Shown piece by piece: positions 699-9,031 of a DNA stretch of 15,879 nucleotides. A program made the translations under genes and the position numbers. Origin of the DNA: a virus (taxonomy: Duplodnaviria; Heunggongvirae; Uroviricota; Caudoviricetes). The first letter of the stretch is position 1. Each line of letters opens with the position of its first letter. The notes under the pieces are model-generated. The model was not told the origin of the DNA, did not search any database, and saw nothing but the letters and a program-made list of their open reading frames with translations. Where the stretch lies: the IMG/VR virus record IMGVR_UViG_2872158770_000005; one strand, written 5' to 3'.

Positions 699-905
699 TG
701 GAGCACCTCAAAAACACCATCATACACTAAATCAGTAAGTTGGCAGCATCACCCCGCCACAGAACAATTATTGCTTTTGCCGTTGATGACAATAAAGTTT
801 TTATCGCAGGCGTATACCACGGTGGGCAAATCTATGAAACCGATTTTTTATCCAGTGCACCGTAAAACCCCCATCCTTCAGGGCGTGGCGGATATCAAAC
901 TTTGG

Positions 906-1988
906 TCATTTTCTCTGGCTGATCTTTACCGGATAACCATCCCGAAGATCAATTAAGTGCTCCGGTTCAGAAGCAAACCATGCATAAGATCCCCACGCCA
1001 ATTCTGGTATTGCCTTTTTAAAAGGCAGAGCACTTCTGTCCATAAATGCCGTAAGGAATGCAAGATTTTTCTCGCTGAACCCAGCGTCAATAGCCAAATG
1101 AGTGAGAGTAACTTTTCGTTCCCTGTTTATAGGCCCATCTGTCGCAACTACTTCAGTGAAAACTACAAGCATGTCCGAACCCGTTCGGTCCTCTCCCAAA
1201 TCAATCAAAATAATATCTGGAAGTGCTTTTGAGGCATCAATATTCAGCCCCAATGCTTTTGCCAATACATCATCCTGAGCAACAACTTTATTCCCGGATT
1301 CAGACAACCAGAGCACAGTTGGATTCTTAAGAAAATTAGGAGCAAAAACTTCGATGACGGCCTTAGCTATTGTACTTGACGGGCCCGGAGCTAAAGTTCT
1401 CTTCTCTCCATTTGGGAAAGTGACGACTACGGCATCAGCAGCAATCACTGCCCCTGATTTCAATAAACGCAACCTAGCAAGAGCGGCTTTGTTCAAATGA
1501 TTTTCTTGCCAGGAACTTATTGCACTCAGCAGCGAATCTCCTTCAAGCCCGGCATCAAAGAGTGCTGCAAAAGAGCGATTCAAACTGTAACGAGGACGAG
1601 AGGATGTGGTGGGTATACCTTTACGCTCAACAATTGCATTGCAAGGTATTAGGCCATTTTTTATAGTTTCATCACGTATTGGCTCACGCGTATTTTCCGC
1701 ATACCATGCATCAGCAGGCCTTATCTTTTGTTTAGAGAAAGTCATCTTTACCCAGCTTTCTCTGGACGCATCATCAGTAAGAGCAGCCTGCGAATCTCCC
1801 ATACTTACAACCTGGCTGGGCCTTATCCATCGCCCCAGCCCCTCAACCGCACCAGCATAAAACATGACAAAAATTGTTTTTGCAGCTATTTCCCGAATTA
1901 AATATCCACGATTCTCAGTCCCTTCAGGGAAAATTAATTGTAATCTTTCCCGGATAACATTCAATGGGGGAACAACAGGCAGATTCAT
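906..1988 (-). CDS. Putative Type II restriction endonuclease (cognate partner of the adjacent methyltransferase; family not assignable from sequence alone)
   Basis: 360-aa ORF directly downstream of the methyltransferase with a 4-nt ATGA stop/start overlap (1985-1988) and a GGAG SD; size and position typical of an R gene. No catalytic motif could be assigned by eye. Confidence 0.5.
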   Translation of the reverse strand: MNLPVVPPLNVIRERLQLIFPEGTENRGYLIREIAAKTIFVMFYAGAVEGLGRWIRPSQVVSMGDSQAALTDDASRESWVKMTFSKQKIRPADAWYAENTREPIRDETIKNGLIPCNAIVERKGIPTTSSRPRYSLNRSFAALFDAGLEGDSLLSAISSWQENHLNKAALARLRLLKSGAVIAADAVVVTFPNGEKRTLAPGPSSTIAKAVIEVFAPNFLKNPTVLWLSESGNKVVAQDDVLAKALGLNIDASKALPDIILIDLGEDRTGSDMLVVFTEVVATDGPINRERKVTLTHLAIDAGFSEKNLAFLTAFMDRSALPFKKAIPELAWGSYAWFASEPEHLIDLRDGYPVKISQRK

Positions 1989-3817
1989 GCAATCATCACT
2001 CCATAGAAACCAGCGATAGTTCTCTCAATAATCCGTCTGTGGACGCCAGCATCAATTAACGATTGAATCTCCATCACCTGCTCCAGAGAAGGCAACGGGA
2101 TTGAATTCAATTCATAGGCCGAAACAGCAACACTTCCGCTTATACACCTGAACGCCCGATCGACAACATGCGAATTAAGTAGCATATCAATAACATCAGG
2201 GCGAACCGCAGAGAACAATCCGTTTGAATATACAATATTAATATGGTTTTCAACTACTACGCCACCAGTTTCATCTATAAATCCCTGAGGTAAAATTGCC
2301 GCTAAAATCCTTCTGTCCTGTTCCTTCGATGTTGTCCGCTGAACAAGCACACATTCAGATTTTGTCACAAGGAAACCCTGTTGTGGGGTTATATCGATAT
2401 AGGGAACATGATTTTTTCTGTCTGCACTAAAACGAAAACCAGCTGAAGTTATTGATTCCGCCCAGACTAATGGGTAGCTATTTTTTCCTTTCGTCGTACG
2501 CAACTGCGACTTAAATCGATTCCAGACTAACTGACCTGTAGAGACTGAGTATCCCAGATCAGCTAAACGCGTAGACATCTGTTTTAATACATTAAGAAAA
2601 CAGGCATCATCTTTAACGCGTGGCAAAAGCCACGTTGCTCCACCTTTTTCTATATCAACATTACCTATTTTCTCAATTTTTGCTTTGTTCAACCCCTTAG
2701 GGACAAGTGAGGATACCTGGGCCCGAACTTTATGTTCTCCCGCCTTGAATGCTGTCAACATTGTTTCCTGGAGAACATCGTCAAAGACCCCATCCCTGTC
2801 AGTGACGAAATCAAGGGCATACGGAGTAGTTTTTTCGGTCAAAAGGGTTCGCAGCGCGGTGAAATACTGCCCACCAAGAAAAGAAGTTGGCGTAAGAAAT
2901 GCAATAACTCCTGTTTTCTCTTTAACCATGCGAACAGCTAAGTCGGTGAACAATCCATATAGATTTGCATGACCAAATAACGAACGAGAATATTTTTCTC
3001 TCGTTTTAATATCGAGAGTGACACGTCCGTAAGGCGGATTCCCTACCACAAGATCATAACCAGAAAATTTATCTTGCTGAAGCGCATCAGCAACAATAAT
3101 TGTATCTTCAGGCAATCTACGTTTTACCTTTACACATAGTGGCATTAGTACAGATTCGAGCAATACCAAACTCATCCAAGCCGCAAATGGATCGATTTCT
3201 ATCCCCTTTAAACGACGACTGATTCTCCTCAACATCCATTCAGGGGAAGACCCCTTGTCTTTTTTTAACATTCGAATGGCTACTGGTGCCAAAAATGCAC
3301 CGCCACCACACGCAGGATCAATAACCGATGCATGAGAAAAATCAACACCAGACTTTTCAGCCAGGTCCAAGAGACGCGCTACCAAAGGTGGGGGGGTATA
3401 GTAAGCCCCCAATTCCGAACGGTAAGCGGATGGCAGCATTACCGTATAAATTGACCCAATCAGATATCCAGCGTCCTCCGCCGGAAATTGAGCAATAAGC
3501 TCACCTGTTCGTTCAGCGAGCTCGCGTGCATCACATGGAATGTCTTCTATGTAAACAGTGTGCGGTACTGCCCTCATTTTAATGCTGCTTTTTTGCTTTT
3601 TTGCAAGGGTATCCCAATATGCAGCTACGATGCTGAAGCAGTATGAGCGGGCATGCATCAACCTTGACTGCCCGGTTTTGTAATTGCCCGCATAACCTTT
3701 GGCCATGGCTTTACAAGTTTGATATCTTTCCAGATTAGAAAACTCATTATCTGTAAAAAAATCAAAATGTTGCACATTCATAATGTAAAATCCTAATGTA
3801 TCAAACATGCGGGCCAT
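1985..3817 (-). CDS. N6-adenine DNA methyltransferase, gamma class (Type II modification methylase)
   Basis: Motif order X-I-IV: GAYYTPP, then DPACGGGAFL (AdoMet binding), then NPPYG (catalytic); about 340 aa follow motif IV, consistent with a target-recognition domain. Alternative start at 3784 (MNVQHF...) has a better AGGA SD. Confidence 0.85.
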   Translation of the reverse strand: MARMFDTLGFYIMNVQHFDFFTDNEFSNLERYQTCKAMAKGYAGNYKTGQSRLMHARSYCFSIVAAYWDTLAKKQKSSIKMRAVPHTVYIEDIPCDARELAERTGELIAQFPAEDAGYLIGSIYTVMLPSAYRSELGAYYTPPPLVARLLDLAEKSGVDFSHASVIDPACGGGAFLAPVAIRMLKKDKGSSPEWMLRRISRRLKGIEIDPFAAWMSLVLLESVLMPLCVKVKRRLPEDTIIVADALQQDKFSGYDLVVGNPPYGRVTLDIKTREKYSRSLFGHANLYGLFTDLAVRMVKEKTGVIAFLTPTSFLGGQYFTALRTLLTEKTTPYALDFVTDRDGVFDDVLQETMLTAFKAGEHKVRAQVSSLVPKGLNKAKIEKIGNVDIEKGGATWLLPRVKDDACFLNVLKQMSTRLADLGYSVSTGQLVWNRFKSQLRTTKGKNSYPLVWAESITSAGFRFSADRKNHVPYIDITPQQGFLVTKSECVLVQRTTSKEQDRRILAAILPQGFIDETGGVVVENHINIVYSNGLFSAVRPDVIDMLLNSHVVDRAFRCISGSVAVSAYELNSIPLPSLEQVMEIQSLIDAGVHRRIIERTIAGFYGVMIA

Positions 3818-4031
3818 AACATCTCATGGTGGCGCATAGCAAACTGGCCCGAAGAATATCACGCACCAAGTCGATCTCATAACCCGTTATGACAATAAAT
3901 CTTTGTAGCTGAACTCACTTGGTGATTTGTCAATCATTCCTGGCCTCCAGTTCGTCCTGAATCTCTTTATCGAGTTCACCGTATTTGTTAGTCCTCATCA
4001 CTCACGACTTGACTTCCAGAAATAACCTTGA

Positions 4032-4445
4032 TTATTCGGGGCTATATTTTGTCACCCTGCGTATCCGCGCTTTCGCATTACGCTCAATCTGGATTAGCTT
4101 TTCTATATTTTTTCGCCTTTCCCGCTCCTCCTGGCGCAAGAGCCTTACATCATCTGCCAGTCTGGTTTCTCTTTTCGCCACAGAGAGCATCCAGTCAAAT
4201 GGCTCCACAACTGCACCGCAAATTTTACAGCGGACCTGACGCTCTTTTTCGTCAACCCGGACAGAAGCGTGATGGCAATATGGTCTTTCCGATGGCTCAT
4301 AAAGAAAATTAACCTGATTACGAGGGTTATCCTCTTTTACCGGAAATAAAACAATATTGCTTAACTCATCTTCTGGTTTTATTTCCATGCTCCTCTCCTT
4401 TGATGCGAATGCCAGCGGTAATTGAAGCCTGATAGCTAATTTCAC
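4032..4445 (-). CDS. Hypothetical prophage protein with Cys/His cluster (possible zinc ribbon)
   Basis: ORF with C-H-H...C-x2-C cluster (CHHASVRVDEKERQVRCKICG). Track start at 4445 is GTG; an in-frame ATG at 4388 (MEIKPEDEL...) has a strong SD (AAAGGAGAGGAG). Confidence 0.5.
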   Translation of the reverse strand: MKLAIRLQLPLAFASKERSMEIKPEDELSNIVLFPVKEDNPRNQVNFLYEPSERPYCHHASVRVDEKERQVRCKICGAVVEPFDWMLSVAKRETRLADDVRLLRQEERERRKNIEKLIQIERNAKARIRRVTKYSPE

Positions 4446-4868
4446 TCACAGTACCGCCTCCTGAAAATCACCCTGATAGAAAGCCGGTACACGCTGCATA
4501 ACTTCACTCTTCCGGCACTCGCGACAGATTATGTTCTGATGTCTGTCGTAGCGGCGTATTTCTCCGTCTGGTAATGACCAGATAAGGTCCGGATCAACCA
4601 CAGATGGTTTCTTCAGCTTTGCCCTCGAGAGTTTTTTGCGGGCGTTTTGCCAGTCCTTACGAGCCTGTTCAGACGGGAATAACCCGTAGCCAGAGTTGTA
4701 TACATCCCCACTGGCAACCAGCTCTCTGGCGAGAACGCTTATTAAATATCTTGTCGCCCCGGTTTTAGCTTCCAGTTGTCGTAACGTCTCGCGCCCACTC
4801 TGGCGTACGAGTTCAACAACCTGCCCCTTAATTTTTTCCCGCTCTTCCTGTGTAAATACTTTTGCCAT
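4446..4868 (-). CDS. Hypothetical prophage early protein
   Basis: ORF in operon with neighbours; track start is TTG at 4883, first ATG (MAKVFTQEE...) at 4868; contains a CRECRK motif. Function not recognisable. Confidence 0.5.
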   Translation of the reverse strand: MAKVFTQEEREKIKGQVVELVRQSGRETLRQLEAKTGATRYLISVLARELVASGDVYNSGYGLFPSEQARKDWQNARKKLSRAKLKKPSVVDPDLIWSLPDGEIRRYDRHQNIICRECRKSEVMQRVPAFYQGDFQEAVL

Positions 4869-4883
4869 AAGCGCCCCCGGCAA

Positions 4884-5609
4884 TCACTTTTCCGACACAA
4901 TACGACCGGAGGAATCGACAATCTGTCGAACAATATCCCGGTGCTTGTTCAGCTCCCGCAACGCGGCGCAGACACGCTCCCACTTCTGGACATGACTTTT
5001 CGCCCGACGCAGTTCGCGGTTTGCCATATGCAGCGATGGTAAAACCAGGTCATCCGCTTGCGTTTCGGTGAACGATGGCAACGACTGCACAATGTCCGCC
5101 ACAGTTTCTGTTTTAATTTCTTCCTGTGTTGCAGCTTCCTGTACCGGTAACGCAACACCTGCTGGCTGAGGAAAGACTTTACCATCCGTTTCCGCTATGG
5201 ATGCGGCTTTCGGCTCTGCCGGTAAATCAGCGCCCGGTATGCAGTACCGAAATTTACCGCCCTGATTCACGCGAATCAGACGCCCTTTGCTGATTGCCAT
5301 GGCCAGCGATGAATTCGCCCGGCGGGAGGTAATCCCGAACATCAGTGCCAGCTCATCCGCCGTTTGTGGGCCATGTTGTTCAATCGCCTCAGTCAGCATT
5401 TGCGCTGTCACTTTCGGTACCGGTGACACTGGTTCACTTTCACCAGCCTGAATCAGCCACCACATCGAACCCTTGTTATCCGCTTCACCACGGCGCTTCA
5501 GTTTCCACAGTTCGTTGACCGCATCTTCACGGCTGATTCCAAGGCGGGACGCCACCACATGTGAAGAGGCTCTTTTCAGTGCTTTCAGTGCGTCAAATAC
5601 AGTTTCCAT
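4884..5609 (-). CDS. Hypothetical prophage protein (position matches ydaW-type genes downstream of the DnaC-like gene in Rac-like prophages)
   Basis: ORF with first ATG at 5609 ([11 protein letters not shown]...) preceded by a GGAGGA SD; track start at 5627 is TTG. Gene order as in Rac-like prophages (recalled). Confidence 0.55.
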
Positions 5610-5630
5610 TAAAACATCCTCCAACAAAAA

Positions 5631-6377
5631 TTACTTCACAACTCCCGGAAAGCTGACATTTGAACGCCAGCTATCCCAGTTAAACGTCACCCACCGACAA
5701 CCGTTCATGGTCATGCGGTCCATAATCCTCTCACCAAGAAGCGTGCTCATTGCGGCATGATTCAGGTTTGTTAACATCCCGACACTGCACAGTGATGCTG
5801 TCCGGCGATCAATTATCTGGTGCAATACCACCTGCTCGTTTTTCGTCTCCCGCTGAATGCCTATTTCATCCAGGACCAGCAAATCAACCCCGCAAAGCTC
5901 CTGTAAAAATTTTTCACCGGATTTGCCGTTGTCGTAGCTGTCATGCAACACGCTCATGACATCAGACTCGGTGACGATAATCACGCTGCGCCCCTTCGCC
6001 ATCAGCCGGTTACCCATCGCCGCTGCAAGGTGATTTTTCCCGGTGCCGGTTTTACCGCTGAACACAAAATTCGTGCACCCGGTCATCAGTTCGTCAGCTA
6101 TGGATTTGGCCTGGCTCAGCGCGTATTTTTGCCCGTCGTTCTGCACCTGATAATTCGCAAACGAGCATTTGCTGTGCAGAGGCTGGATGCCCGAACGATT
6201 CAGGATTTTTTCCACCCGCAACTGGCGATTCTGGCGGTTAATCTCCTCGCTGCGTTTTCGTCCTTCAGCAAGTTGCCATTCCCGCCACTCCTCCACCGTC
6301 CGGTACGGTGGAACCGCCCCCTGTGGTGCAAGTCTGTGAATACGTTCAAGAACCCCGGCTGCCGCAATGTTTTTCAT
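5631..6377 (-). CDS. Phage replication protein, DnaC-like helicase loader (AAA+ ATPase)
   Basis: Walker A GKTGTGKNHLAAAMG and Walker B DLLVLDEIG in the arrangement typical of DnaC; lies immediately downstream of the O-like initiator. Confidence 0.85.
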   Translation of the reverse strand: MKNIAAAGVLERIHRLAPQGAVPPYRTVEEWREWQLAEGRKRSEEINRQNRQLRVEKILNRSGIQPLHSKCSFANYQVQNDGQKYALSQAKSIADELMTGCTNFVFSGKTGTGKNHLAAAMGNRLMAKGRSVIIVTESDVMSVLHDSYDNGKSGEKFLQELCGVDLLVLDEIGIQRETKNEQVVLHQIIDRRTASLCSVGMLTNLNHAAMSTLLGERIMDRMTMNGCRWVTFNWDSWRSNVSFPGVVK

Positions 6378-6383
6378 GCCACA

Positions 6384-7448
6384 TCACCCCCTGAATCCCG
6401 GCGGAATTTCGGTATCCGGTTCAGAAATATGATTCACACAACGCTGGTTGTTCGTGCCGCTTACCGGGAGCAACCAGGGGTTTTCAAAATTCCGGTCCGG
6501 CCCAAAAAACGTCGTCGCTCGCTGAACAAATTCCGTTCCCGCTTTCCCGGTCGCCGCCAGGTATCTCGCGTAACGCCTCACACCATCCAGCATGGTCTCT
6601 GGTGGCACCCCCTCGCGCAATCTGGCCTTCCAGGCACTGAATGCGGATTTCTTCGGGTTTGCCCCGGCACGCAACGGGTATTCCCGCCAGACCTGTTCGA
6701 ACACATCCGGATAATCCACTCGTCCCACAGGCTGCCCGGTGTTTTCCGGGGCTACCCGATCGGCTTCCCGCTGAATGGCGGAATCGGCTTCAGGCTGCTG
6801 CAGTTGGAGTGATTGCTCCGGCCTTGCGGTCATCACCTGCTGCACAGCGCCCGAATCGGCTTTCAGCGCATACGCTGAATCGGCTTCCGGTGTCGAGCCT
6901 GCTGGCTGACCAGGATTGACGGTCTGAACATCCCCTGCCTGGTTCGTGGCGTTTTTTACGCCATGGACCATAGTGTTTTGATCTTCTTTATCTGTATCTT
7001 TATCTGTATCTGTCGTGACTCGTCGTGACATGTGCGTGACATTTCGTGACGCGCCGTGACAATCGCCATTTTGTTCCCGCTTTCTTTCCCTCTCTCGCTG
7101 CGCCCTCTTGCGCTCTGCAGGAGATTTTGCGGTTTGCGAAATATTGCCGTTGTCCTCTTTAAGCACCTGGCGTTTTTCCCATCCAGTGATTAAATCACCA
7201 TCAAGTACCCGCCCCTGCATCGTCTGCAAAATTGAATCAATTACCTCTTCTGTCACGTCGAGCGCACTTGCCAAATCTTCTGTCGTGACATCAATGTGAC
7301 CTCGCGTGACATTTCGTGACGCGCTCACCAGGAGGTGGATATACACTGCCATCACTGTTGCAATTGGCTGCCCTGACACCCTGGCAATTGTTCGCCACTT
7401 AGGGTCATTTGGCATGTCATGCCATAATCTGAGCCAGGCGTTAGCCAT
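6384..7448 (-). CDS. Phage replication initiation protein (lambda O-like / YdaU-like)
   Basis: N-terminus MANAWLRLWHDMPNDPKWR and position upstream of the DnaC-like gene; ATG at 7448 with GAGGTGA SD (track start 7454 is GTG); carries internal iteron-like repeats. Confidence 0.7.
   Translation of the reverse strand: MANAWLRLWHDMPNDPKWRTIARVSGQPIATVMAVYIHLLVSASRNVTRGHIDVTTEDLASALDVTEEVIDSILQTMQGRVLDGDLITGWEKRQVLKEDNGNISQTAKSPAERKRAQRERERKREQNGDCHGASRNVTHMSRRVTTDTDKDTDKEDQNTMVHGVKNATNQAGDVQTVNPGQPAGSTPEADSAYALKADSGAVQQVMTARPEQSLQLQQPEADSAIQREADRVAPENTGQPVGRVDYPDVFEQVWREYPLRAGANPKKSAFSAWKARLREGVPPETMLDGVRRYARYLAATGKAGTEFVQRATTFFGPDRNFENPWLLPVSGTNNQRCVNHISEPDTEIPPGFRG
6986..7060. repeat. Tandem 12-bp duplication (CTTTATCTGTAT x2, 6986-7009) followed by five CGTGAC repeats at about 10-bp spacing (7014-7060); candidate replication-origin iterons
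   Basis: Read directly: tgtCGTGACtcgtCGTGACatgtgCGTGACatttCGTGACgcgcCGTGACaat. Lies inside the O-like gene, as ori-lambda lies inside O. Confidence 0.45.
7284..7320. repeat. Second cluster of CGTGAC-type repeats (iteron-like), also inside the O-like gene
   Basis: tgtCGTGACatcaatGTGACctcgCGTGACatttCGTGAC; the 16-mer CGTGACATTTCGTGAC is shared with the first cluster. Confidence 0.4.
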
Positions 7449-7519
7449 ACTCACCTCTTCTGATACCGAATCTTTTTACTCACGAGTTGCCGGGAGCGAT
7501 TCGATATGGCTATTGTCAG

Positions 7520-7945
7520 TCAATGTACTGCCACAGCATTTCCTGCCGGGCCACCACGGTTCATCTGATTGAAACCGGCGATTGCCACTGCGACAAAATC
7601 ATCAGCGTCTCTCACCAGTCGTTCATGCGTCTCCACCAGTTCCCGAAAATAAGCTGAACTGTGGCTGCGCATTCGAGCCACCAGCGGAGGTGGCATTGCC
7701 CTTTCGATCGCAGGTAACAACGCCTGAATTTTTTCAACAGCGTCAGGGGTGTCTTTATCCAGCCAACGGAAAATCTTTTGGGTGTTGAGATAAAGCGTGT
7801 TGTGCTTGCTGTCGTTATGCAGAACCGGAAACGTCATTCCCAGTTCGAAATAAACCCTGGTTATTTCAGCTGCCGGAACTTTTTCACCGTCCGGATGCGC
7901 CCAGGCTTTCATCGCCATGCGGATGTGTTCATGCTTGATTTTCAT
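7520..7945 (-). CDS. YdaT-like prophage protein (Rac-type toxic/regulatory protein)
   Basis: 141-aa ORF starting MKIKHEHI, same size and position as Rac YdaT (recalled); start overlaps the upstream Cro-like stop as ATGA (7942-7945). Confidence 0.6.
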   Translation of the reverse strand: MKIKHEHIRMAMKAWAHPDGEKVPAAEITRVYFELGMTFPVLHNDSKHNTLYLNTQKIFRWLDKDTPDAVEKIQALLPAIERAMPPPLVARMRSHSSAYFRELVETHERLVRDADDFVAVAIAGFNQMNRGGPAGNAVAVH

Positions 7946-8205
7946 GAATCAACCCCCGCCGATGGTTGTGTGTTAGCCTGAAACTCAGCAGGCAAGCCGT
8001 CAGTTGGGTTGGGGTAGGTTTTACTGTCAATCTCATGTGGGGTCACCACCCATCCCGTTGCTTCACACCAACGTAATATTTTTTCTCCTGTAAGTTTTGC
8101 ACGCCCCGTTATAACGTGGCTGACCATCCCTTGGGATGCGCCAACAATCTCAGCAAATGAACTCTGGGTTATATGAAAATGATGCAAATATTCTCCAAGA
8201 TTCAT
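7942..8205 (-). CDS. Cro/YdaS-like HTH DNA-binding protein
   Basis: Helix-turn-helix segment QSSFAEIVGASQGMVSHVITG; divergent from the repressor gene; ATG at 8205 (MNLGEYLHHF...) with SD; track start 8232 is TTG. Confidence 0.65.
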   Translation of the reverse strand: MNLGEYLHHFHITQSSFAEIVGASQGMVSHVITGRAKLTGEKILRWCEATGWVVTPHEIDSKTYPNPTDGLPAEFQANTQPSAGVDS

Positions 8206-8316
8206 AATCCGCCCTATGTGATGTGTTACCAATGCATAATTAATAGCACTGTTATTTTTAAAAGTAAATAGTGATGCTATTTCAAAGTGATTAGCAATCT
8301 TATTAGAATTGGATGT
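8206..8316. promoter_or_regulatory. Divergent promoter/operator region between the Cro-like and CI-like genes (OR-like)
   Basis: Contains near-palindrome AATAGTGATGCTATT (8266-8280), related half-palindrome AATAGCACTGTTATT (8242-8256) and palindrome GATTAGCAATC (8289-8299); possible -35 TTCAAA (8282-8287) and -10 TAGAAT (8305-8310) ending 7 nt before the repressor ATG. Confidence 0.5.
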
Positions 8317-8817
8317 ATGAAAAGAAAATCATTGTCAGACACCGACCTCAACGCCGCCAGAAGACTGAAAGAAATCTGGATGGCAAAGAAATCTCAGTTG
8401 GGATTGACTCAGGAACGTGCGGCGGAAATTATGGGGTTTTCAACACAAGGGGCGGTAAGTCACTACCTAAATGGTCAAACCCCACTAAACCTTGAGGCTG
8501 TTCTAAAGTTTGCTGGCTTACTGAAAGTTCCCCCTGAGTCAATCAGGCCAGACATGGTAGATTTGCTGCAAATTGCAAGGATGTATTGTCGAGAACCACA
8601 GCAAGATAACATAGTCGCATTACCAGCAGACACAGAACAAACAGAGGATGAACTACCGTTTGCCGTAGAGCCGATGGAACGAGATTTAATCCATACGTTC
8701 AGAGCTTTTCCGAAAGAAGATCAAGAACACATGCTTCAGGAGATGAAAGATAAAAAAGAATCAATGGATCGTACGGTTGCGCGGTGGTTAGCTGCACAAA
8801 AAGGCCGTCGCGCCTAA
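8317..8817 (+). CDS. CI-type HTH (XRE family) prophage repressor, RacR/PaaR2-like; no recognisable S24 peptidase domain
   Basis: HTH LGLTQERAAEIMGFSTQGAVSHYLNG; divergent from the Cro-like gene; first gene of the repressor-antitoxin-toxin unit. Start set to ATG 8317 (MKRKSLSDT...) rather than the longer track ORF. Confidence 0.8.
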   Translation: MKRKSLSDTDLNAARRLKEIWMAKKSQLGLTQERAAEIMGFSTQGAVSHYLNGQTPLNLEAVLKFAGLLKVPPESIRPDMVDLLQIARMYCREPQQDNIVALPADTEQTEDELPFAVEPMERDLIHTFRAFPKEDQEHMLQEMKDKKESMDRTVARWLAAQKGRRA

Positions 8818-8836
8818 ATCAGAGGAGATATGTAAA

Positions 8837-9031
8837 ATGAGTACAGTCCTTTCCCCAATGGTTTCAGAATTTGAGACAGTTGAGCAAGAAAATAGTTACA
8901 ACGAATGGCTGCGGGCCAAAGTAGCAGCAAGCCTCGCGGATCCCCGCCCGGCGATTCCGCATGATGAGGTAATGGCGGAAATGGAACAAATTATTGCCCA
9001 AATTGCTGCTGCAACTCACAGAGGTGAATAA
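8837..9031 (+). CDS. Type II antitoxin, PaaA2/ParD-like
   Basis: 64-aa ORF directly upstream of and overlapping (TAATG) a ParE/RelE toxin gene; AGAGGAG SD; sequence matches my recollection of PaaA2. Confidence 0.65.
   Translation: MSTVLSPMVSEFETVEQENSYNEWLRAKVAASLADPRPAIPHDEVMAEMEQIIAQIAAATHRGE

Follow-up and report, generated by a model that had tools for sequence, protein, structure and literature searches.

A three-gene block between the replication genes and a restriction-modification pair of a lambdoid prophage remnant most probably represents the distal end of the early-right operon

The 15,879-nt window analysed here (IMG/VR virus record IMGVR_UViG_2872158770_000005; Caudoviricetes) carries three consecutive minus-strand genes, gp1, gp2 and gp3, between the replication genes and a restriction-modification (R-M) pair. 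Our analysis indicated that this block is most probably the standard last part of the early-right (pR-type) operon in a lambdoid prophage of the Rac/Qin type and is independent of the neighbouring R-M genes. A first-pass annotation made from the letters of the sequence had left the functions of the three genes open, between nin/Q-region functions and accessory cargo, and had raised a possible link to the R-M pair. Profile homology searches found instead ordinary lambdoid early-region proteins, the outcome that the annotation itself had named as speaking against its proposal: gp1 belongs to PF07789, and gp2, a member of PF06163, is homologous to lambda Ren and takes up the place of ren. All three genes are ordinary and already catalogued, with near-identical proteins annotated in thousands of genomes. 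The block comprises the following genes.

gp1, 5609-4884, minus strand: 241 residues, ATG start with GGAGG 8 nt upstream; DUF1627/YdaW family
gp2, 4868-4446, minus strand: 140 residues, ATG start; DUF977/LygF/Ren-like
gp3, 4388-4032, minus strand: 118 residues, ATG start with AAGGAG 6 nt upstream; phrog_1621

As the first-pass annotation had described, these open reading frames (ORFs) are intact and tightly packed after the replication module, and the distances running from the loader gene through gp1 and gp2 to gp3 were 21, 15 and 57 nt. The genes that precede them in the same direction are listed here.

cro-like gene, 7942-8232, minus strand: early-right operon
YdaT/cII-like gene, 7520-7945, minus strand: early-right operon
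Replisome organizer, 6384-7454, minus strand: phrog_3729 at 3e-250
DnaC/IstB-like loader, 5631-6377, minus strand: PF01695 and phrog_50, directly upstream of gp1

A consensus scan of the minus strand over window positions 8300-3700 found no sigma-70-like promoter and no intrinsic terminator, and because none is predicted between these genes the simplest reading is that gp1-gp3 would be co-transcribed with the replication genes. The starts of gp1, gp2 and gp3 matched the RefSeq annotation of near-identical genes. The longest mechanical ORF of gp3 begins at a GTG at 4445, and the start at 4388 was preferred since RefSeq and the N-termini of 33 homologues agree on it. A strong Shine-Dalgarno sequence had been proposed for every start, which was borne out for gp1 and gp3 and not for gp2, where the start codon is preceded by a mere G-run (GGGGG).

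Comparative data show that gp1-gp3 are more than chance ORFs, as Pfam and PHROG matches had E-values of 1e-30 to 1e-121 and the ratio of non-synonymous to synonymous substitution (dN/dS) was 0.08-0.46 over the three genes, a range calculated from about four diverged copies per gene with dS values up to 1.3 and indicating purifying selection. Two plus-strand ORFs that overlap the block (4028-4312 and 4696-4995) were rejected as antisense shadows of genes under purifying selection. Sequence searches of the three proteins against PDB chains gave no match below E 0.3, an NCBIfam scan returned nothing relevant, and none of the PADLOC defence models was significant (best E 0.0099). The earlier observation that the block contains no Q-like antiterminator or nuclease signature was upheld in Pfam, PHROGs, NCBIfam and PADLOC; in the first three of these databases gp1-gp3 had no profile match to NinB, NinG, RusA, NinH or Q. 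Genes for DUF968, RusA and Q were found further downstream in relatives.

The gp2 protein matched PF06163 (DUF977) over the entire profile (105.9 bits against a gathering cut-off of 22.1; residues 1-136 against profile positions 1-134 of 134). It also matched phrog_142, the 'Ren-like exclusion protein' family, at 2e-46, and lambda Ren matched the same family at 1.6e-41. Alignment of the gp2-family profile to Ren with hhalign was colinear (17-132 against 7-93; probability 93%, E 2.7e-7), and BLASTP with the C-terminal motif recovered the relationship between gp2 and Ren at E 1e-5, the shared motif reading NIICRECRKSEVMQRV in gp2 and NLVFKECRQSAAMKRV in Ren. The dN/dS of gp2 was 0.13-0.32, and its architecture is as follows.

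gp2: N-terminal winged helix, basic linker, C-terminal motif LPDGEIRRYDR..NIICxECRxSExMxR

Genes of the gp2 type lie immediately downstream of the replication genes in lambda, Rac, O157 SS17, the 75/02 Shiga toxin (Stx) phage and IMG/VR loci. The shared PHROG, the colinear alignment and the equivalent gene location make gp2 a Ren homologue with an extra basic linker, encoded where lambda has ren. The Cys/His zinc ribbon that the first-pass annotation had suggested for two of the genes did not hold for gp2, whose only cysteine pair is C115xxC118, with no third or fourth ligand conserved and with H110 not conserved either. Since this lone CxxC is FxxC in Ren, its first cysteine being replaced by phenylalanine, and no further conserved ligand accompanies it, gp2 is not a zinc ribbon.

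For gp1 the match to PF07789 (DUF1627) reached 309.2 bits against a gathering cut-off of 28.1 and covered profile positions 1-155 of 155, and the match to phrog_630 had an E-value of 1.7e-121. By sequence comparison gp1 is the full-length form of the YdaW protein of Rac. It has no Cys/His cluster. In the AlphaFold model a three-helix bundle with a beta-hairpin wing superposes on solved winged helices, and the parts of the protein are given below.

gp1 winged helix 1, residues ~4-50: three-helix N-terminal domain of the AlphaFold model
gp1 winged helix 2, residues 69-123: well predicted in the AlphaFold model
gp1 linker, residues 132-191: disordered, rich in Pro, Ala and Glu
gp1 C-terminal long helix, residues 193-240: invariant motif, the most conserved sequence of the family

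The gp3 protein matched phrog_1621 (E 1.1e-54; residues 1-115 against 1-118 of 134), which has no annotated function, and belongs to no Pfam family, its only Pfam match being a subthreshold one to PF08271 (Zn_Ribbon_TF, TFIIB; 21.6 bits against a cut-off of 29). Its dN/dS was 0.08-0.17. Alignment of 34 enterobacterial and then 98 distant homologues showed that the CHCC ligands (C38-x-H40...C54-x-x-C57), a DPFD turn and a C-terminal L(K/R)RxERNxKARxRR motif are near-invariant. The three cysteines were invariant, and the histidine was present in 93 of the 98 distant relatives and replaced by cysteine in 4. The copy in this window has EPFD in place of the DPFD turn and carries the basic tip IERNAKARIRR. 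An AlphaFold2 model (predicted local distance difference test score, pLDDT, of 74, and >90 in the helix) comprised a small ribbon followed by a single helix at residues 63-115, with the ligands placed around short beta-strands at 43-46 and 51-54. Four conserved ligands arranged in two knuckles are the pattern of a zinc ribbon, and a zinc site is predicted for gp3, so that this half of the earlier zinc-ribbon suggestion was retained, with conservation in 98 relatives.

A gp3 profile search of 1.84 billion representative proteins returned 1651 clusters (50% identity) at E<=1e-3 and 269 at E<=1e-10. A Pfam scan of the 98 distant relatives assigned them to no Pfam family and gave subthreshold zinc-ribbon and coiled-coil noise only, PF08271 appearing even below threshold in just 13 of them. 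Foldseek comparison of the gp3 model with PDB and BFVD found nothing below E 0.1. One distant relative is located among anonymous early genes in an unrelated phage, and ten distant relatives came from clusters named 'hypothetical', save one that was apparently mixed. This 90%-identity cluster joins 146-residue gp3-like Serratia proteins with 127-residue proteins named RusA. The mixture may be an artefact of clustering or gene fusion, or gp3-like and rusA genes may truly be neighbours in Serratia prophages. Two functional candidates for gp3 were rejected, a restriction-alleviation protein of the Lar/Ral type for want of profile support, and a C-protein of the R-M system because gp3 has no helix-turn-helix (HTH) and its distribution is contrary to such a role.

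The genes downstream of gp3, in an inserted cassette at 754-4027, form the second part of the evidence, and their layout is given here.

N6-adenine methyltransferase, 1985-3817, minus strand: R-M partner, with a 214-nt spacer on its gp3 side
BsuBI/PstI-family endonuclease, 906-1988, minus strand: BsuBI_PstI_RE domains
ParE C-terminal remnant, 754-865, plus strand: cut by an IS1 insertion sequence

Megablast searches of 5426 complete E. coli genomes detected the R-M pair in 2, gp3 in 1680 and gp1+gp2-like DNA in 4280, the last at a median of two copies per genome and up to nine. An IMG/VR sample was made of the 80 contigs with the most similar gp3, and is thus biased towards this window; among the 61 with enough downstream DNA, methyltransferase and endonuclease genes followed a near-identical gp3 in 4. 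DUF977 was located upstream of gp3 in 64 of 70 IMG/VR contigs (directly adjacent in 43), and DUF1627 was present in 31 of 64. Window positions 754-4721 were 99.1% identical to E. coli FDAARGOS_943, while homology to the R-M-free prophages AREA_487 and O157 SS17 begins at window position 4028, only 4 nt past the gp3 stop codon. In FDAARGOS_943 a 3.8-kb segment with parDE and the R-M genes (5407-9228 of its stretch) stands in place of the 1.6-kb segment with hokD and small genes in AREA_487, and this exchanged segment sits between gp3 and the DUF968/RusA/Q region. The guanine-plus-cytosine (GC) content was 43-44% for the cassette, 50-55% for gp2, gp1 and the replication genes and 44.5% for gp3. 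The R-M and ParDE genes are thus, as judged from these comparisons, a rare and independently acquired low-GC cassette (a moron) that is no part of the block, and the distribution together with the sharp cassette boundary argues against any link between the two. In this window an IS1 insertion at about position 754 removed parD and most of parE.

Comparison of related prophages also showed that the block is only loosely one. FDAARGOS_943 has gp2, gp3 and the R-M pair and lacks gp1; in VL7S7 DUF4406 and Ea22-like genes separate gp2 from gp3; in AREA_487 gp2 and gp3 directly follow an HTH replication protein, with the loader and gp1 absent; and the 75/02 Stx phage has gp1 and gp2 and lacks gp3. 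In many database entries gp3 is fused chimerically to Ea22-like, DUF977, DUF1627 or Q-like sequences, which shows that recombination at its borders is frequent. The stable unit is the optional ydaW gene and the ren-like gene after the replication module, and a variable accessory region opens with gp3, so that the three genes amount to ydaW and ren as a pair and, beside them, an accessory gene that shuffles.

On this basis a working model can be outlined in which gp1-gp3 would be transcribed on induction along with the replication genes and the cro-like and cII/YdaT-like genes. The gp1 and gp2 products would be non-enzymatic winged-helix proteins encoded right after the last replication gene, whatever the type of replication module, and may serve as accessory factors that the phage can do without and that attach to DNA or to a partner protein in or near its replication complex. 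The analogy with Ren suggests that they might further weaken abortive-infection or exclusion systems. The gp3 protein would combine a zinc-stabilised ribbon with a long, probably dimerising and basic-tipped helix, and most likely would bind nucleic acid or a host protein. The R-M and ParDE cassette would have landed right after the gp3 stop codon, neither controlled by the block nor needed by it.

An accessory or anti-exclusion role of the Ren type is put forward tentatively, as a possibility and somewhat less than an expectation, and it draws on the Ren homology, on findings that connect Ren to Rex and on a screen result for ydaW. Lambda ren mutants reportedly become sensitive to Rex exclusion (Toothman & Herskowitz 1980). 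Ren has also been described as 'likely involved in DNA replication', and two-hybrid data indicated that the Rex proteins interact with O and Ren (preprint 10.1101/2021.04.19.439022). The ydaW gene of K-12 was recovered in an overexpression screen as a blocker of RcaT, the toxin of retron-Sen2 (preprint 10.1101/2020.06.22.160242). Searches of the literature on LygF, DUF977, DUF1627, YdaW and Ren located no functional study beyond the few passages cited here.

Several points weigh against the model. The window contains no rexAB-like genes for a Ren-like gp2 to counter. Co-transcription depends on a simple consensus scan only, and as the prophage is decayed gp1-gp3 may never be usefully expressed. 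The ydaW retron result was a hit in an overexpression screen with the truncated K-12 allele. The AlphaFold model of gp1 had a pLDDT of 62 overall and was built on a shallow alignment, because the homologue searches for gp1, like those for gp2, listed only sequences that were 82-99% identical. When the winged helices of the gp1 and gp2 families were compared for paralogy, hhalign gave a probability of 2% and detected no homology.

Alternatively, gp1 and gp2 could be classical sequence-specific transcription factors acting on phage or host promoters, an explanation that we consider rather unlikely. Their folds resemble winged-helix regulators of the ArsR/MarR kind, and weak profile matches to MarR, TrmB and AbiEi-type HTH families were obtained. 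YdaW of K-12 figures in a list of predicted transcription factors whose function is unknown (PMC9308461). For DUF977 Kinch et al. 2009 predicted a winged-helix fold, and it occurs in fusions with Fic domains, where it presumably serves as a regulatory HTH (PMC2686095). No operator-like targets are known, however, and Ren is not known to regulate transcription. The fixed place after the replication genes across immunity and replication types fits a replication-linked or host-directed role equally well or better.

It is also quite improbable that the block is a functionless relic whose ORFs are intact merely because the decay of the prophage is recent. The three IS1 copies and one IS3-family element, the interruption of ParE by IS1, the lack of late genes in the window and the many database relatives that are truncated or chimeric fusions would all be in keeping with a relic. 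Against this, gp1-gp3 are intact and 99-100% identical in independent Shigella sonnei and IMG/VR contigs, and purifying selection on the families indicates a function in phages, though not necessarily in this remnant.

That gp1-gp3 are accessories of the R-M system, whether as a controller, an anti-restriction or self-protection device or a co-mobilised defence island, is hardly credible: they lie immediately upstream of the methyltransferase and endonuclease genes on the same strand with no terminator predicted between gp3 and the methyltransferase gene, the GC content of gp3 is as low as that of the R-M genes and both other E. coli genomes with this R-M pair have gp3 beside it, but the genome and contig counts and the abrupt boundary behind gp3 given above, the lack of gp1 in one R-M relative and the unrelated genes that stand between gp2 and gp3 in the second, the want of a PADLOC match or an Xre-type C-protein HTH, and the occurrence of PstI-type R-M cassettes in lambdoid and Stx prophages as independent morons (PMC3893438) all oppose it.

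The surroundings of the block are those of a decayed lambdoid prophage, with the insertion sequences listed below and an immunity region that includes a PaaA2/ParE toxin-antitoxin pair. The remnant most likely belongs to Shigella sonnei, the name under which near-identical proteins and contigs are recorded, and the insertion sequence load of the window is typical of Shigella.

IS1 copies, 1-770, 10278-11050 and 12291-13060: near-identical, with InsA/InsB ORFs
IS3-family element, 14723-15879: rve integrase with an upstream HTH ORF

One InsB copy carries W58S, and residue 5 is Ser in the first IS1 copy and Cys in the remaining two. The plus-strand segment 8287-9321 encodes an HTH_3 repressor-like protein (176 residues), then a PaaA2 antitoxin (64 residues) and a ParE toxin (96 residues). 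This arrangement, here located at the immunity region, appears similar to the three-component paaR2-paaA2-parE2 system of O157:H7 prophages. Rfam matches on the plus strand at 11559-11748 identified the Hfq-binding small RNA isrK (61 bits) and the C4 antisense RNA (77 bits). They lie just before and inside an ORF for an Ash/Rha-type antirepressor (11524-12297, plus strand), and the whole is a P1/P7-like c4-ant immunity element between two IS1 copies. Two further plus-strand ORFs, 13621-14682 (353 residues) and 9753-10130 (125 residues), had no Pfam match at E<=0.001.

In terms of significance, the block is no new defence-associated module and represents standard lambdoid prophage content that is present in most E. 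coli genomes. Reading DUF977/LygF as the Ren family would give thousands of 'DUF' genes a testable phenotype, namely resistance to Rex-type exclusion or interaction with replication proteins. Proteins of the gp3 type form a large, well-conserved and unnamed phage family without a Pfam model, and a first study of their function could be made at little cost. A broader idea, for which we see only a small chance, is that the post-replication genes of Rac- and lambda-type phages constitute an unrecognised counter-defence locus, in which gp1 and gp2 would act against abortive or toxin-based immunity and the gp3 family would have a specific host or nucleic-acid target; the activity of lambda Ren against Rex and that of K-12 ydaW against the retron-Sen2 toxin would then be two glimpses of it.

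Among known systems, EcoGIII of O104:H4, also found in O145:H28 Stx2a prophages, is a prophage-borne R-M system of the PstI/BsuBI type and of the same kind as the neighbouring cassette; the likeness concerns this neighbour and not gp1-gp3, and the R-M allele of the window is the one confined to 2 of the 5426 complete E. coli genomes. For gp3 the best Pfam and Foldseek likeness was to the TFIIB-type zinc ribbon (PF08271), which likewise has four ligands in two knuckles about 14 residues apart. This likeness is weak (Foldseek E 0.37) and at the level of the fold only, as the ligands are CxH...CxxC in gp3 compared with CxxC...CxxC in TFIIB, and the 50-residue helix that follows the gp3 ribbon has no counterpart in TFIIB.

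Closer relatives of gp3 are encoded by Stx phages. The gp17 protein of ArgO145 is 95% identical to gp3 and is encoded in the early-left operon directly after an Ea22-like gene, and p77 of 933W has the same ribbon-plus-helix core at 31% identity and is encoded after an Ea22-like gene and before hok/sok. The ArgO145 and 933W copies lie either in the early-left operon or close to the end of the genome with the attachment site, whereas gp3 here follows the replication module. Small genes or a hok toxin come after these copies, as they do after gp3 in prophages that lack the R-M pair, and the small genes of 213, 183 and 177 nt behind the gp3-like gene of ArgO145 have the same sizes in AREA_487 and SS17. 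The gp3-type family was also observed to recur beside Ead/Ea22-like genes and hok toxins.

LygF/DUF977 proteins are known from the Sdr I region of Salmonella Enteritidis and from E. coli prophages, and gp2 is an ordinary member of this group with no substantive difference. The name derives from the lyg genes of S. Enteritidis (PMC4490851), and the annotation LygF/DUF977 is borne by 24 phage records. YdaW of the intact phage Rac is 80% identical to gp1, and the gene order ydaV (DnaC-like), ydaW, lygF is common to Rac and this window. K-12 YdaW (b1361) is 57% identical to gp1 over residues 1-139, which include both winged-helix domains, and is a truncated allele without the linker and the conserved C-terminal helix that gp1 possesses.

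Lambda Ren, a protein of 96 residues, is encoded right after P, and gp2 likewise has its gene just behind the replication genes of the pR operon. Ren itself fails to reach the Pfam DUF977 family. The gp2 protein is longer by 44 residues and has a basic linker of about 30 residues and the LPDGEIRRYDR segment, while both proteins begin with a winged helix and share the C-terminal motif N-[IL]-[IV]-x-x-E-C-R-x-S-x-x-M-x-R-V.

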